NCBI GenBank assembly: GCA_001778985.1
Contig: MFIU01000001.1
Coordinates: forward strand, 126,001-190,000
Direction: 5' to 3'
DNA from: Candidatus Giovannonibacteria bacterium RIFOXYD1_FULL_48_21
Lineage (GTDB): Bacteria; Patescibacteriota; Minisyncoccia; JACPKW01; UBA11713
DNA: 64,000 nucleotides
Shown here piece by piece: positions 54,265 through 60,041 of this stretch (positions are counted from its first letter, which is position 1; every line of letters starts with the position of its first letter). Below the pieces are notes generated by a model, which had not been told where the DNA came from, ran no database searches, and saw only the letters and a list, made by a program, of their open reading frames with translations. A program made the position numbers and the translations under genes.

Positions 54265-55776
54265 ATGCTTCGTGAAATTATTAGAGGAGAACTCGCCAAA
54301 ATAATAAATGACGACTTGGAGATTAAAATCTCCGAGCCGGAGCGGTCGGAGAATGGCGACTATTCAACCAACGTCGCCTTTTTGCTGGCGAAGAAAGAGG
54401 GGAGGAAACTACAGGAGGTGGCGAAGGAGCTCGCCCTTCGATTGAGCTCAGGGCAATTCGCAGAGCGAGTTGCTGCCAAAAATGGATTCGTGAACATCTT
54501 TTTAAAAGACGAGGTTTTGCTAAAAGCGCTCGGAGAAAAAGAAAAATTTCCCAAGAAAAAAGAGAAAATCAATGTTGAATTTGTCTCGGCAAATCCCACC
54601 GGGCCTTTGACCATGGCCAACGGCCGCGGCGGGTTTTACGGCGATGTTTTATCTAATGTTTTAAAAAAAACCGGCTACGACGTTACGCGCGAATACTATA
54701 TTAATGACGCTGGGAATCAAATAAAGCTTTTAGGCGAGTCCATTCAGGCGGCCGAAGGAAAAATTCCGGAGAAAGAGGAGTATTACAAGGGTGAGTATAT
54801 AAAAAAACTCAAAGGAAAGAGCGCTGCGGAGGCCGCGTCGATTCTGTTGAAAGAAATAAAAAATTCGCTCAAGAAAGCAGGCATAAAATTTGATGTTTGG
54901 TTTTCGGAAGAAAAAAATCTGCGAAAAACCGGCGAATTAAAAAAAGTCCTCGAACTTTTAAATAAAGAAGGAGTGATTAAAGAGGGCGCGGGCGCCCTGT
55001 GGCTTGATGATAACGTTTTGGTTAAGTCAAACCAGGAGTTCACGTATTTTTTGTCGGATTTGGCGTATCACTACGATAAATTTATAAAAAGAAAATTCGA
55101 CGTCGCGATAGATATTTGGGGGGCTGACCATCACGGATATGTCGCACGGATGAAAAGGGGAACGGTGATGCTGGGCGTGAATCCAGAATGCCTTAAAATA
55201 ATTATTATGCAGTTGGTGCGTTTGACGAGAGACGGCAAAGAGGTGCGGATGGGGAAAAGAACAGGCGAATTCGTAACTATGGATGAGCTTTTGGACGAAG
55301 TTGGGCTTGATGCCGCGCGGTGGTTTTTTCTTTCGCATGCGCCCGAGACCCACATGGATTTTGACTTGGATTTGGCAAAAGAGCGGAGCGAGAAAAATCC
55401 GGTCTATTATGTGCAATACGCTCACACAAGAATGCAGAGCATTCTGCGTAAATCAGAAATCCGAAATCAGAAATCCGAAATAAAATCATTTGAACATCCA
55501 GCAGAGAGAGCTTTGGTTATGAAAGTTCTTCGCTGTCCCGAAATTCTGGAAGATATTTCCAAAGATTACCAAGTGCACCGCCTTACAACTTACGCCTACG
55601 AGCTTGCGCAGACGTTCTCCGCGTTTTATAGAGATGTGAAAGTTATTGGCCCGCCTAGACTCGGCGAGGCTGGCTCTGAGCGCGAAGCGGAACTTTTGTA
55701 TCTGGTTTCCAAAGCTAAAGAAACTTTAGCGGATTTGCTCAAATTAATGGGCATTTCTCAACCCGAGGAGATGTAG
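54265..55776 (+). CDS. argS: arginine--tRNA ligase
   Basis: class-I core plus DALR anticodon-binding domain, C-terminal ...EEM. Confidence 0.85.
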   Translation: MLREIIRGELAKIINDDLEIKISEPERSENGDYSTNVAFLLAKKEGRKLQEVAKELALRLSSGQFAERVAAKNGFVNIFLKDEVLLKALGEKEKFPKKKEKINVEFVSANPTGPLTMANGRGGFYGDVLSNVLKKTGYDVTREYYINDAGNQIKLLGESIQAAEGKIPEKEEYYKGEYIKKLKGKSAAEAASILLKEIKNSLKKAGIKFDVWFSEEKNLRKTGELKKVLELLNKEGVIKEGAGALWLDDNVLVKSNQEFTYFLSDLAYHYDKFIKRKFDVAIDIWGADHHGYVARMKRGTVMLGVNPECLKIIIMQLVRLTRDGKEVRMGKRTGEFVTMDELLDEVGLDAARWFFLSHAPETHMDFDLDLAKERSEKNPVYYVQYAHTRMQSILRKSEIRNQKSEIKSFEHPAERALVMKVLRCPEILEDISKDYQVHRLTTYAYELAQTFSAFYRDVKVIGPPRLGEAGSEREAELLYLVSKAKETLADLLKLMGISQPEEM

Positions 55777-56548
55777 CGGTTGGAAAAAGATCGTTCTCTC
55801 TGACGAATTTCTCGAAGTTTTCTGGGTTGCCCGTTGTAATATAGCGGCGCGCGCCGTTTTTAGAGAGTTTTTGCTCGATTTCCGGATGGCGCGAGAAATA
55901 ATTTTCAAGCGCGGCCGGGATTGTTGAAGGGGAGTCGAAAATTTTGGCGTCGGGCATCTCGGCCTGAATCAGGTGTTTTATAAAAGGATAGTGGGTACAG
56001 CCGAGGACGATATTTTGGATGGATTCTGTTTTGAAAGGATTGAGATATTTTTTAAGCGCACGCGACATATCGCTATGATATATCATAGCGGCTTCGATTA
56101 ACGGAACAAGCAGGGGAGCAGCCTGTTGGATTATCTTTATGTCTGGAGATATTTTATGAATCTCGCGGATGTATGCTTCTGATTTGACGGTGGCTTCTGT
56201 CGCGAGAATGCCTACCGTATGTGCTTTGCTGGCCGCGACAGCTTCCGCTACGGGAATCAGAACCCCCAAAACCTTTCTTTCGGGTCCGCCAGCTGGCGGA
56301 CCCTTTTGAATCCTGCGAAGGGCGGCAGCTGCCGCCGTGTTGCAGGCGAGAATCACAAGCCTACACCTTTCGCGAAAAAGCCAATCCACGCATTCTTCGG
56401 TATATTGGTAAATCGTCTCGGACGAGCGCGAGCCGTAAGGTGCTCTGGCGTTGTCGCCAAAGTATATAAAATCATATTTTGGAAATTTTTTGTCCAATTC
56501 CCGAAAAACCGTCAGCCCTCCGTATCCCGAATCAAAAACCCCAATCAT
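55739..56548 (-). CDS. murI: glutamate racemase
   Basis: IGVFDSGYGGLTV, LACNTAAA, GCTHYP. Confidence 0.85.
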   Translation of the reverse strand: MIGVFDSGYGGLTVFRELDKKFPKYDFIYFGDNARAPYGSRSSETIYQYTEECVDWLFRERCRLVILACNTAAAAALRRIQKGPPAGGPERKVLGVLIPVAEAVAASKAHTVGILATEATVKSEAYIREIHKISPDIKIIQQAAPLLVPLIEAAMIYHSDMSRALKKYLNPFKTESIQNIVLGCTHYPFIKHLIQAEMPDAKIFDSPSTIPAALENYFSRHPEIEQKLSKNGARRYITTGNPENFEKFVRENDLFPTATSPRVEKCPLI

Positions 56549-56585: not shown

Positions 56586-59500
56586 ATGGCCGATGAGAAA
56601 GGTCACCCTATATACGATTCCGTGTCTCCTCGGGCCGAAGAGGAGATTCTTTCATTTTGGAAGGAAAACGGGATTTTTAAGAAGAGTGTAGCCCTTCGAC
56701 AAGCTCAGGGCAAAAAAGACAAAAGTAAGACGTTTGTCTTTTTTGAAGGGCCGCCATATGCTAACGGTTTGCCCGGGATTCATCACGTTGAATCGCGCTC
56801 TTTTAAAGATATAATTTTGCGCTATAAGACCATGCAAGGTTTTTACGTTCCTCGCAAGGCCGGCTGGGACACGCACGGGCTTCCCACGGAAATGGCCGTG
56901 GAAAAAGAACTAGGCATCAATTCCAAGCGCGAGATTGAAGAAAAAATCGGCGTAGAAAAATTCATCCAGGCCGCGAAGAAAAATGTTTTCTTTTATAAAG
57001 AAGCTTGGGAAAAACTGACCGAGCGGATGGCCTACTGGCTGGATTTGGCCAATGCCTACGTCACGATGACGAACGATTACATTGAATCTTTGTGGCAGGT
57101 CGTTTCGCAGATTTCCCAAAAAGGGCTTTTGTACGAAGATTATCGAATTTTACCTTGGTGTTCTCGTTGCGGCACTTCGCTTTCATCCCATGAACTTGCG
57201 CTCGGGTATAAATTCGTGAAAGAGGAGTCGATTTACGTAAAATTCCCGCTGAAGCAAAAGCCGGGAGTAAAACAACTTTCAAGTTTTCTCGTCTGGACAA
57301 CAACCCCGTGGACTTTGCCGGGCAATGTCGCCTTGGCCGTCAATCCCAAAGCGGATTATGTCACTGTGGAGACGGAGACTTCTCCGGGCGAGTGGCTGAT
57401 TTTGGCGGAGGAGAGGTTGGGCGTCCTCGCCGGAAAATATAAAATAATAAACCGCGAGAAAGGAAAAAATCTGGTCGGGACGGCGTACGAAAGTTTGTAC
57501 AGGGATGAGCCGGGGAAGGTGGTCGCGGCGGATTTTGTTTTGACTGAAGACGGCACGGGCATTGTGCACATCGCGCCTGCTTTCGGGGCTGAAGACTTGG
57601 AAGTCGGCAAAAAACACAGTCTTCCGATATTCATGACGGCTGGAGAGGACGGGAAAATGGTGTCGCCCGGCAAGCCGTGGGACGGGAAATTCGTAAAAAC
57701 GGCCGACCCCCTGATAGTCGCGGACTTGAAAGAACGCGGACTTTTGTATAAAACCGAATTTTACGAGCACGACTACCCGTTTTGCTGGAGATGCGAAACG
57801 CCCTTAATGTATTACGCTAAAAACTCGTGGTTTTTCAAAACCACGGCCGTCAAAGACAAAATGCTTTCGGAGAATTCTAAAATCGACTGGCATCCGGGTT
57901 ATTTGAAAGATGGGCGTTTCGGCGAGTGGCTCAAGGAAAACGTGGACTGGTCCATTTCTCGCGAGCGCTATTGGGGAACTCCTTTGCCGGTGTGGAGATG
58001 CGAAACCCGCCTGCCGGACGGGCAGGAATGTAAGAAGGTAAAAGTCATCGGTTCGCTTAAGGAACTGGACGAGTTGGACCCCCATCCGACTGAGCTTATA
58101 GTGATGCGCCACGGCGAAACCTCGATTAACGTCAAAAAATCTCTCTATGCTCTTTCGCCTGATGATGACAGAAAAATCCATATCACGGGGAAAGGGAGAG
58201 ATGACGTGTTGAAAGCCGCAAGAGAGCTTAAGAAAGAGAAGATTGACGTCATTGTTGCTTCGCCAGCGACCAGGACAAAAGAAACAGCCGAAATTTTAGC
58301 GCGAGAGCTGGGCCTCTCTGACTTTGAAACCATTCCGGAATTTTACGACATTCTTATAGGCGCCGCTTTTGAAGGGAAGCAAGAAGAAGAATTTAATAAA
58401 GAATTTGAAATCTGGGAAGAGAGATTTTGGAAGAAGCCAGAGGGGTCGGAGAACTGGCGGGAGCTTCGAAGGCGCGTTATGGCGGGAGTGAAGAAGCTTT
58501 GCGAGAAATACCGAGGCAAGAAAATTTTGCTGGTGGGGCACGGCGACCCTTTGTGGGTTATGCTGGCGGCGCTGGAGGGACTGGCGGAGAAGGATTACAA
58601 AAAAATACCGTATCCCCAGACAGGAACATTCAGAAAAATCCGGCTTCATAACTGGCCTTACAATGCCGAAGGCGAACTGGATTTGCACAAACCCTATGTT
58701 GATTCCATAAAATTTCGCTGTGATTGCGGGAGCGAGATGGGGCGCGTTAAAGAAGTGATTGATGTCTGGTTTGATTCGGGCGCGATGCCTTTTGCCGCGC
58801 AGGGTTTTGGAAGTCCGACTTCCAAGGGGAAGTCGGACTTCCTCTATCCCGCCGATTATATTTCGGAGGCGATTGACCAAACCCGCGGCTGGTTTTACAC
58901 GCTTTTGGCGGTCTCGTCTTTATTGGGTTTGGAATCTTCCTATAAACGCGTTCTCTCGCTGGGGCTCGTCTTGGATGAGAAGGGAGAGAAGATGTCCAAG
59001 TCCAAAGGAAACGTGGTGGACCCGGTTAAACTCATTGAAAAATACGGGGCGGACGCGGTCCGGTGGTATTTTTATACCGTAAATCAGCCTTGGGACGACA
59101 AGCTTTTCCGAGAGAGAGACATTCAGGATGCCAGACGCAGATTTTTGATGATTTTGTGGAATTCATTCGTCTACTGGCAAACTTACAAAGAAGTCCAACT
59201 TCCAATTGGAAGTTGGACTTCCAAGCCGAAACTAATCATAAACAAATGGATTCTTGCGAAATGGAACGTGATTTTGAAGGAAGTTACCGAAAAACTTGAA
59301 AAATATGATATTGTTTCCGCGGCGCGAATTTTAGAAAATTTCGTGGTGGAAGATATCTCGCACTGGTATATCCGCCGAATCCGGAAATATATGAAGTCTG
59401 AAGATAAAGAGTGTTCTCGAGTGTTGGGCAATATTCTTTTGGAGCTTTCCAAATCGCTCGCGCCTTTCGCGCCGTTTATAGCGGAGGGGATTTATAAAGG

Positions 59501-60041
59501 TACTGACGGCAAAAAGGAGAGCGTGCATTTGGAAGATTGGCCGGAAGCTAAAAAACTAAAAGCTGGAGGCTATAAACTGATTAAAGATATGGAAAAAGTG
59601 CGGGAGATTGTTTCCAAAGCGCTCGAACTTCGACAGAAAGCCGGAATAAAAATCCGACAGCCCCTGCAAAAATTACAAATCACAGACAAATTACCAGCAG
59701 AGTTTCTGGAGTTAGTTAAAGGAGAGGTGAACGTGAAAGAAATTGCTTTTAGCGATAAATTTGAACTGGACACGAAACTTACCGAAGATTTGAAAGAAGA
59801 AGGACTTGTTCGTGAATTCATCCGCCAAGTGCAGGATTTCCGAAAAGAACTCAAGCTGAAACCGCAGGAGAAAGTGGAGCTCTCCGCCTCGGGCGAAAAA
59901 TCTCTTGAAAAAATTCTACAAAAACACGAGAAACTTATTAAAAAAGAAATAGCACTTTCGGAATTTGAAATCGGAAAAGGAAAAGGCCGCAAAAAAGAGC
60001 TTAAATTAGGTGACTCTGTGGTTGAAGTCTACATCTCTTAA
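56586..60041 (+). CDS. ileS: isoleucine--tRNA ligase carrying an inserted histidine-phosphatase domain
   Basis: PGIHH (HIGH), GWDTHGLP, CP1 editing domain, KMSKS; 1151 aa. Confidence 0.9.
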   Translation: MADEKGHPIYDSVSPRAEEEILSFWKENGIFKKSVALRQAQGKKDKSKTFVFFEGPPYANGLPGIHHVESRSFKDIILRYKTMQGFYVPRKAGWDTHGLPTEMAVEKELGINSKREIEEKIGVEKFIQAAKKNVFFYKEAWEKLTERMAYWLDLANAYVTMTNDYIESLWQVVSQISQKGLLYEDYRILPWCSRCGTSLSSHELALGYKFVKEESIYVKFPLKQKPGVKQLSSFLVWTTTPWTLPGNVALAVNPKADYVTVETETSPGEWLILAEERLGVLAGKYKIINREKGKNLVGTAYESLYRDEPGKVVAADFVLTEDGTGIVHIAPAFGAEDLEVGKKHSLPIFMTAGEDGKMVSPGKPWDGKFVKTADPLIVADLKERGLLYKTEFYEHDYPFCWRCETPLMYYAKNSWFFKTTAVKDKMLSENSKIDWHPGYLKDGRFGEWLKENVDWSISRERYWGTPLPVWRCETRLPDGQECKKVKVIGSLKELDELDPHPTELIVMRHGETSINVKKSLYALSPDDDRKIHITGKGRDDVLKAARELKKEKIDVIVASPATRTKETAEILARELGLSDFETIPEFYDILIGAAFEGKQEEEFNKEFEIWEERFWKKPEGSENWRELRRRVMAGVKKLCEKYRGKKILLVGHGDPLWVMLAALEGLAEKDYKKIPYPQTGTFRKIRLHNWPYNAEGELDLHKPYVDSIKFRCDCGSEMGRVKEVIDVWFDSGAMPFAAQGFGSPTSKGKSDFLYPADYISEAIDQTRGWFYTLLAVSSLLGLESSYKRVLSLGLVLDEKGEKMSKSKGNVVDPVKLIEKYGADAVRWYFYTVNQPWDDKLFRERDIQDARRRFLMILWNSFVYWQTYKEVQLPIGSWTSKPKLIINKWILAKWNVILKEVTEKLEKYDIVSAARILENFVVEDISHWYIRRIRKYMKSEDKECSRVLGNILLELSKSLAPFAPFIAEGIYKGTDGKKESVHLEDWPEAKKLKAGGYKLIKDMEKVREIVSKALELRQKAGIKIRQPLQKLQITDKLPAEFLELVKGEVNVKEIAFSDKFELDTKLTEDLKEEGLVREFIRQVQDFRKELKLKPQEKVELSASGEKSLEKILQKHEKLIKKEIALSEFEIGKGKGRKKELKLGDSVVEVYIS
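58085..58675 (+). other. histidine phosphatase (phosphoglycerate-mutase family) domain inserted inside ileS (approximate bounds)
   Basis: LIVMRHGETS (RHG catalytic motif) ... ILLVGHGDPLWV (second catalytic His); about 195 aa between the IleRS zinc-knuckle region and DLHKPYVD. Confidence 0.6.
58809..58842. repeat. in-frame palindromic insertion in ileS (copy 1)
   Basis: GGAAGTCCGACTTCC-AAGG-GGAAGTCGGACTTCC. Confidence 0.55.
59190..59221. repeat. in-frame palindromic insertion in ileS (copy 2)
   Basis: GAAGTCCAACTTCCAA / TTGGAAGTTGGACTTC, a perfect 16+16 palindrome related to copy 1. Confidence 0.55.

Follow-up and report, generated by a model that had tools for sequence, protein, structure and literature searches.

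Two in-frame palindromes in a Giovannonibacteria ileS gene as apparent copies of a small repeat family of the Patescibacteria

The gene for isoleucyl-tRNA synthetase (IleRS), ileS, of Candidatus Giovannonibacteria bacterium RIFOXYD1_FULL_48_21 contains two similar palindromic doublets that are translated in frame. They lie on contig MFIU01000001.1 within the stretch of 64,000 nucleotides analysed here (positions 126,001 to 190,000), which is referred to as the window and whose first nucleotide is position 1 in all coordinates. As judged from sequence comparisons, these doublets appear to be copies of a small repeat family widespread in the Patescibacteria, or Candidate Phyla Radiation (CPR), the largest uncultured bacterial group. 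The explanation we favour, with a probability of roughly 0.6, is a CPR-wide family of palindromic doublets resembling repetitive extragenic palindromic (REP) sequences or Rickettsia palindromic elements (RPEs), which is open in six reading frames and persists in permissive protein loops.

The two doublets and the protein loops they encode

The host gene and the palindromic features are located as follows:

56586-60041, plus strand: ileS coding sequence, host of both doublets, 1151 aa, with the Pfam domains tRNA-synt_1, Anticodon_1 and DUF5915
58809-58842: palindromic doublet 1, with unit GGAAGTCCGACTTCC (58809-58823), spacer AAGG (58824-58827) and reverse-complement unit GGAAGTCGGACTTCC (58828-58842)
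59189-59222: palindromic doublet 2, with unit AGAAGTCCAACTTCC (59189-59203), spacer AATT (59204-59207) and unit GGAAGTTGGACTTCC (59208-59222)
58807-58825: extended single-unit hairpin inside doublet 1, TTGGAAGT-CCG-ACTTCCAA, with a stem of 8-9 bp

A first-pass annotation had described near-identical perfect palindromes at 58809-58842 and 59190-59221, in frame within ileS, and this description holds: their likeness is not due to chance, and the open reading frame (ORF) runs unbroken through both. The arms of doublet 1 comprise 15 nt and are 100% complementary around a 4-nt loop, as seen both by reading the sequence and by a repeat search, and in doublet 2 the sequences GAAGTCCAACTTCCAA/TTGGAAGTTGGACTTC at 59190-59221 form a perfect 32-nt palindrome with 16-nt arms, 100% complementarity and no loop. 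The two doublets start 380 nt apart and are 88% identical across 33 nt, and the hairpin at 58807-58825 fits the family consensus (C)TTGGAAG-N5-CTTCCAA(G). When up to two mismatches are allowed, GGAAGTCSRACTTCC matches only the four unit positions of both doublets in the 64-kb window, corresponding to eight strand-matches against 0.77 expected, a number reached in 0 of 100 shuffles, and the window contains no further inverted repeat with arms of at least 15 nt and a loop of up to 6 nt. Folded as RNA, doublets 1 and 2 yield -33.8 and -24.1 kcal/mol, respectively (z = -6.7 and -7.0), a stability matched by none of 200 shuffles. The best hits of an Rfam 15 scan of positions 58600-59400 were plant miRNA models, scoring 14-22 bits against gathering thresholds of 71-195.

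In translation, doublet 1 corresponds to GSPTSKGKSDF(L) at residues 742-753 (GSPTSKGKSDFL) and doublet 2 to (K)EVQLPIGSWTSK at residues 869-880, the peptides already named in the first-pass annotation, which had placed the second about 125 aa downstream (127 aa as measured here). Elements of this kind would be translated into peptides such as FGSPTSKGKSDFLYPADYISEAIDQTR. The IleRS of the window is identical to the NCBI entry OGF65565.1 from Candidatus Giovannonibacteria (100% protein identity), and was aligned with 38 homologues, all of them from CPR and the majority with the same domain architecture. This alignment places site 1 between DSGAMPFA and YPADY and site 2 between WNSFVYW.TY and LIINKW, which are the most length-variable columns in that region of the protein. 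The AlphaFold model has a mean confidence (predicted local distance difference test, pLDDT) of 81.8 and five stretches below 50, namely residues 1-10, 57-66, 95-97, 747-750 and 870-878, the last two of which are the palindrome peptides, modelled as coil between secondary-structure elements; that of doublet 2 connects the helices 843-867 and 884-905. Both sites are hypervariable surface loops that are predicted to be disordered, and they flank the KMSKS segment of IleRS, one on each side.

Two other features of ileS may be added here (L and P numbers denote our contig and protein entries). A whole His_Phos_1 domain (Pfam, E = 6e-32; RHG motif VMRHGETS) is contained within the IleRS catalytic domain at 58095-58625 (aa 504-680), inserted between WRCE...IGSLKELDEL and DLHKPYVD and modelled by AlphaFold as a confident fold. 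Nearly all of the 120 closest IleRS homologues, which are of CPR/Parcubacteria type throughout, share this domain, with P0102 among those that lack it, and a literature search found nothing on a histidine-phosphatase insertion in IleRS. Moreover, an imperfect inverted repeat, CAAAAAAGACAAAAGT-AAG-ACGTTTGTCTTTTTTG, with 16-nt arms and one mismatch, occurs at 56711-56745 in the N-terminal QGKKDKSKTFVFF segment (ileS aa 42-54), a part of modest model confidence.

Anatomy and distribution of the repeat family

Each element measures about 33-35 bp and is built as a doublet: a 15-nt unit, GGAAG-N5-CTTCC, is followed by a spacer of 3-5 nt and then by its own reverse complement, and the whole doublet can be folded as a hairpin or cruciform of 15-20 bp. 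In about one third of the copies, the doublet is extended outwards by a further pair of arms, TCAAT(A/G)TT...AA(T/C)ATTGA, and measures about 55 bp with these arms included. The commonest variant is free of stop codons in all six frames, and an in-frame copy adds about 11-12 flexible, hydrophilic residues, which read GS.TSK, KSDF or EV.LP according to the frame.

A scan of one genome per species with the pattern GAAG-N5-CTTCC-N(3-5)-GGAAG-N5-CTTC, in which the inner bases were left free, returned at least 118 stretches. At least 44 of the 118 listed come from metagenome-assembled genomes (MAGs) of Patescibacteria belonging to at least 12 candidate phyla (Giovannoni-, Ryan-, Zambryski-, Lipton-, Kaiser-, Nealson-, Harrison-, Vogel-, Nomura-, Yanofsky-, Morani- and Saccharibacteria). 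Full complementarity between the ten free bases characterises 36 of the 44 listed CPR stretches, in 15 distinct inner variants, and chance would produce this in about 1/1024 of cases each. The listed matches from outside CPR are mainly G+C-rich terminator-like hairpins or low-complexity repeats. The same pattern applied to viral contigs as a control gave 17 matches, of which one was truly palindromic, and on this count a phage-borne origin was discarded. Pfam searches with 20 host ORFs identified DnaG, MetRS, UvrA, CysRS, TsaD (twice), LeuRS, FtsK, a ComEA/LTD protein, GatA, a radical SAM protein, GyrB, PGA_cap, a GT4 glycosyltransferase, MurC, MnmA, PGK and a ferric reductase.

Metagenomes were scanned for the commonest variant (GGAAGTCSGACTTCC, spacer, GGAAGTCSGACTTCC), yielding at least 115 loci with at least 118 doublets in 91 unique contexts, and the 15-mer GGAAGTCCGACTTCC emerged as a frequent unit that is kept across many CPR phyla. 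Among the doublets listed (at least 118), inverted arrangements outnumber direct ones by 111 to 7, and 97 of the 118 listed (82%) are located within ORFs of at least 150 aa. Judged by motif reading rather than Pfam, the hosts comprise IleRS (both sites), MetRS, CysRS, ArgRS, RecG, UvrA, RNR, TopA, PolX, ATP synthase beta and gamma, MurB, RecR, Mpg, PNPase and RNase J. All three reading frames are used (32/16/29), one loop of RecG hosts the element in two different frames depending on the lineage, and elements occur at both gene-internal and intergenic positions. That the motif is a dispersed repeat, as the RPE analogy of the first-pass annotation would imply, is borne out by both scans, which find it in frame in dozens of unrelated CPR housekeeping genes.

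Two unusual arrangements were seen in these data. On the metagenome contig OBOI01000649.1 (L146, 8690-9605), three doublets of the main variant fall within 900 bp of one hypothetical ORF of 518 aa, the densest cluster seen. A Saccharibacteria MAG (contig CAZYSH010000014.1; L055, 3310-3415) contains an apparently intergenic, perfect palindrome of 106 nt, in which TTGGAAG...CTTCCAA units are nested about a GGAAGCGAAGCTTCC doublet, an architecture suggesting that elements can become longer through repeated rounds of inverted duplication.

Turnover at orthologous sites and symmetry of the arms

Orthologous ileS genes differ widely at the two sites, as listed here with the amino acid identity of each IleRS to that of the window:

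L001, 70%: site 1, GGAAGTTCGACTTCC-AAGG-GGAAGTCGAACTTCC; site 2, GAAGTTCGACTTCC-TATT-GGAAGTCGAACTTC
L003, 70%: site 1, its own unit GGAAAC-TCG-GTTTCC; site 2, a single copy of the same unit
L125, 70%: site 1, GGTGGCTTAGCCACC-ATTT-GGTGGCTAAGCCACC, with a different core; site 2, a GGAAG-type doublet
L126, 52%: site 1, the exact 34-mer of the window; site 2, GGGGGCTTAGCCGCC-ACTG-GGCGGCTAAGCCCCC, with a different core
L127 (Tagabacteria), 53%: site 1, no element; site 2, a GGAAG-type doublet
L123, 84%: site 1, no element (GKYYPKL); site 2, no element, another short repeat instead
L124, 72%: site 1, no element (GGYYPKF); site 2, a decayed remnant, GAT TGG ACA TCC AAA

L123 represents the closest relative without palindromes, and its site 1 loop is 9 aa shorter. 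Note that the GKYYPKL-type loop of L123 and L124 is not colinear with the occupied alleles, and no clean empty site with a definable insertion junction was found. The ortholog alignment proposed in the first-pass annotation thus places both peptides in hypervariable loops, with L123 lacking the element at site 1. Of the accompanying claim that the peptides are insertions, their position in dispensable, variable loops stands, but the term does not apply in the strict sense of a clean insertion into conserved sequence, since other lineages have other short repeats or remnants in these loops. Among the orthologues whose DNA was recovered, no case of the peptides being conserved without palindromic DNA was encountered: the DNA is palindromic in L001, L126 and L127, and P0006, which has the peptides, is represented by its protein sequence only.

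The site 1 copy of L001 differs from that of the window by one compensated pair, and the derived TTCGA/TCGAA is present at both L001 sites; L003 has its own GGAAAC-TCG-GTTTCC unit at both ileS sites and a degenerate copy in a variable loop of argS, the same loop in which L001 carries a GGAAGC-type doublet. In both contigs, lineage-specific variants are therefore shared by the two ileS sites in a concerted manner. In a neighbour-joining tree of 118 IleRS sequences, the carriers P0045 (encoded on L126) and P0061 are split from the window clade by many non-carriers that have kept the ancestral loop of the QNHYPFETKKLN type. This scattering of the carriers implies either double acquisition at one spot, or retention under strong nucleotide-level constraint with many losses. 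The ileS loops are thus landing pads, filled by different palindromes, remnants or other short repeats in different lineages, and the orthologues document gain, replacement and decay of elements.

It is extremely improbable that the palindromes are due to chance, to an assembly artefact or to a TIGR guide-RNA stem-loop unit inside the gene. Palindromes can indeed arise in assembly, but the elements recur at orthologous sites in independent ENA, NCBI, JGI and Logan assemblies with compensated differences, and chance is excluded by the statistics of motif count, folding and complementarity. Stem-loop arrays of the TIGR type do occur in CPR and can be in frame within genes (bioRxiv 10.64898/2026.09.09.750476), but box C (UGAUGA), box D (CUGA) and the spacer pair are missing from both elements, as judged on the element motifs, and the loops comprise only 0-4 nt. 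The single UGAUGA in the vicinity (59146-59151) belongs to the conserved FLMILW codons, and a TIGR-Tas unit was rejected for want of these motifs.

Further repeats were observed in the same loops. At site 2 of L123 (3620-3700), a direct repeat encoding NYKLKTTNYKL replaces the palindrome, and the word KTTNYKL also occurs in distant IleRS (P0009 and P0066); several lineages carry PFD(S/F)AQGKP at site 1. Other short repeat families thus seem to populate the same ileS loops. A second palindrome family, with a 15-4-15 layout and the core GGNGGC-TTA-GCCNCC, is represented in other Giovannonibacteria ileS genes by the following copies, and peptides such as GRPGRHLATGSP in further IleRS would suggest more members:

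L125, 12192-12225: GGTGGC-TTA-GCCACC, ileS site 1
L126, 12611-12646: GGGGGC-TTA-GCCGCC, ileS site 2

The symmetry of the arms was quantified by counting pairs in an alignment of 33 doublets with 4-nt spacers. Pairing is found in 97.8% of the cells, compared to 23-55% in slid controls, and 10 of 15 pairs have changed on both sides (94 cells), values that were equalled in 0 of 500 shuffles. One-sided changes of the G-U type are completely missing from the inner pairs. Since structures acting only as RNA normally tolerate G-U pairs, the strict Watson-Crick pairing argues for a cause at the DNA level rather than an RNA-only structure, and points to pairing needed on both strands, to a symmetric duplex site, or to one arm being copied from the other. 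Moreover, L031 and L111, which belong to one MAG, have the same 34-mer, TATA spacer included, although the two genes concerned and their flanks are unrelated; entire doublets are therefore copied within genomes.

These observations also bear on a purely local origin, in which template switching or fold-back replication at a seed hairpin, followed by quasipalindrome correction, would create non-mobile palindromes whose resemblance is convergent. Such a process would be in line with the strictly Watson-Crick pairing, with the many copies that are perfect through the centre (spacers CGCG, TATA, TGCA and AATT), with spacers that are mostly site-specific, with the nested 106-nt palindrome of L055, and with the lack of a target-site duplication or of any transposase that turned up, a systematic search for the latter not having been made. 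We nevertheless regard it as very unlikely, because one and the same 15-nt unit recurs across unrelated genes and flanks, as does, within one MAG, a complete 34-mer down to its spacer, because convergence on one 15-mer at 115 or more loci is not credible, and because the viral control shows that the pattern is not palindromic by itself.

Mode of persistence, related systems and implications

In the favoured explanation of a REP- or RPE-like doublet family, a copy landing in a permissive loop and keeping the frame would add a few flexible residues and be tolerated. CPR genomes have little intergenic space, and the surviving copies would for this reason be found mostly inside long housekeeping genes. 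The element itself would be selfish or neutral and may spread via a DNA hairpin intermediate, either by single-stranded DNA transposition of the HUH/RAYT type (RAYT, REP-associated tyrosine transposase) or by hairpin-directed gene conversion, and its perfect pairing would be kept by the spreading mechanism or by templated correction, not by a host function.

Several observations weigh against this explanation. No target-site duplication is present, with no direct-repeat signal at offsets of 0-12 for k = 2-5, the flanks of the elements show no conserved target sequence, and no transposase or mobilising gene turned up, although no systematic transposase search was made. The excess in CPR rests on un-normalised counts among the matches listed. 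Copy number is low: one extra copy was seen for roughly every 60 kb of the CPR sequence sampled, which suggests at most some tens per 1-Mb genome. The remaining 60 kb of the window contain no other element of this kind. The order of the units on the sense strand is biased, with C-centred before G-centred in a ratio of 51:20, an asymmetry not predicted by a symmetric DNA element alone. Recent mobility is not supported, because the loop peptides are fixed in three species-level clusters (at least 90% identity) with zero presence/absence polymorphism. Finally, at site 1 the window and L126 agree over 38 nt that comprise the palindrome and CTCTA, and the next-longest identical run measures 17 nt, in genes sharing 58% nucleotide identity, 44% at third positions, and 52% protein identity; with the proteins so diverged, a purely neutral passenger would not be expected to represent the best-conserved DNA of the gene. 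The 38-nt identity, the 51:20 bias and the fixation within clusters would also fit single-strand transposition using a conserved recognition hairpin.

The same features may alternatively indicate a hairpin with a function for the host, i.e. a conserved cis-element for a CPR-wide trans-acting factor that is held by selection, not by mobility. It may act as an mRNA hairpin for RNase III or ribosome pausing, or as a symmetric DNA site or cruciform for a dimeric protein, and in either form may coordinate the regulation of housekeeping genes. The retention of GGAAGTCCGACTTCC across many CPR phyla, the identity of 38 nt at ileS site 1 despite saturated synonymous sites, the compensatory changes that keep pairing perfect, the high stability of the hairpins, the orientation bias on the sense strand and the fixation within species-level clusters all speak for such a function. 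However, L123 as a close relative (84% identity) has neither element, a remnant decays in L124, and a different core replaces the element at the same site in L125 and L126. In addition, three frames as well as gene-internal and intergenic positions are all in use, the host genes are functionally unrelated, no Rfam match was obtained, and the essentially missing G-U pairs argue against an RNA-only structure, and we therefore consider a host function unlikely. A more specific proposal, which we rate as clearly unlikely, regards the doublets as recognition sites of a CPR-conserved factor, for example a DNA- or cruciform-binding dimer or a double-strand RNase, whose regulon would be written inside genes and would comprise a few dozen hairpins within coding sequences for aminoacyl-tRNA synthetases, replication, repair and the cell wall. 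It would account for 38 nt of a dispensable IleRS loop being the best-conserved DNA of the gene.

A comparison with known systems places the doublets closest to the palindromic repeats of other bacteria. RPEs were reportedly described by Ogata and colleagues in 2000 and 2002, and RPE-1 measures about 100-150 bp and is not known outside Rickettsia. Like RPEs, the elements analysed here are palindromic repeats in frame in intact housekeeping ORFs, including those of aminoacyl-tRNA synthetases and DNA-repair enzymes, are translated as extra surface peptides and belong to a lineage with reduced genomes. They are set apart by length and host, being doublets of a 15-nt unit found across the Patescibacteria. 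The analogy to RPEs drawn in the first-pass annotation is therefore apt as to in-frame palindromes in loops of intact genes, but the elements are analogues and not members of that family (33-35 bp versus about 100-150 bp), and in size and doublet structure they are nearer to intragenic REP dimers than to RPEs. Both RPEs and intragenic REPs, often dimers, are documented; intragenic REPs in uvrA, polymerases and tRNA synthetases encode roughly 10-30 extra residues, and RAYT has been hypothesised as the enzyme mobilising REPs, although it is not always found (Di Nocera et al., 2013, PMC3733652). Shared with REPs are the format of 20-40 bp hairpin repeats, which are often inverted dimers, and the location of some copies wholly within ORFs. 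REPs are mainly extragenic and high-copy, however, whereas the elements described here are mainly intragenic, low-copy and conserved in their GGAAG...CTTCC core across phyla. The REP tags GTAG and CGTC occur in 2 and 3 of 90 flanks, compared to 3 and 4 in distal control windows, and are thus not enriched.

In REPIN/RAYT systems and IS200/IS605-derived palindrome-associated elements, an inverted hairpin doublet is mobile without target-site duplication. The inverted hairpin doublet likewise appears to be the mobile unit here, a target-site duplication is lacking and the 51:20 bias would fit single-strand transposition, but the elements have half the typical size of REPINs, and no HUH/Y1 transposase turned up, again without a systematic search. 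Miniature inverted-repeat transposable elements (Correia/NEMIS, ERIC) differ in carrying terminal inverted repeats around a core of 70-300 bp and a target-site duplication, instead of a spacer of 3-5 nt and no duplication. The cyanobacterial SDR elements of about 21-27 nt, reportedly described by Elhai and colleagues in 2008, and HIP1 are also said to be tiny hairpin-forming repeats tolerated inside genes, but to differ in sequence, host phylum and architecture. Mitochondrial genes of Nematomorpha contain coding palindromes with arms of up to 284 bp in conserved protein regions (PMC6649704). These resemble the doublets as perfect inverted repeats in translated sequence whose pairing is kept in evolution, but do not form a dispersed family, whereas the arms of the CPR elements encode dispensable loops and the same sequence occurs in many genes. 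A literature search for palindromic or intragenic repeats in CPR/Patescibacteria found no description of this family; this is no proof of novelty, and the GGAAG-N5-CTTCC doublets are apparently not yet described.

Repeats were also observed in the genes next to ileS. Positions 55450-55481 in argS (plus strand) hold 2.3 perfect tandem copies of the 14-nt sequence AAATCAGAAATCCG, which are translated as KSEIRNQKSEIKS in the ArgRS loop that follows YVQYAHTRMQSIL. This loop contains GGAAG-type palindromes in L001 and L003 and a doublet of the main variant in a metagenome ArgRS. Three perfect palindromes are located in murI:

56282-56303, minus strand: GGGTCCGCCAGCTGGCGGACCC, 22 nt
56071-56090, minus strand: CGCTATGATATATCATAGCG, 20 nt
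56321-56336, minus strand: GGCGGCAGCTGCCGCC, 16 nt

Translation of the 22-mer gives GPPAGGP, which belongs to a loop differing among four orthologues, and the 22-mer may represent another in-frame palindrome of unrelated sequence. An RVT_1 reverse-transcriptase gene is found about 9 kb upstream of ileS on the syntenic Giovannonibacteria contigs L001 (215-1054) and L125 (483-1322).

In-frame palindromic repeats were previously known mainly from Rickettsia and from scattered intragenic REPs, and the much smaller element of about 33 bp described here recurs inside essential genes across the CPR/Patescibacteria. It raises the questions of how a 33-bp hairpin spreads without target duplication or an obvious transposase, and whether its strict conservation is selfish or useful to the host. 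For annotation and phylogeny, the element accounts for odd peptides such as GSPTSKGKSDF and EVRLPIGSRTSK in otherwise conserved CPR proteins; for strain typing, it provides a compact nucleotide marker, and for structural biology and engineering, it flags permissive loops in aminoacyl-tRNA synthetases and repair enzymes.

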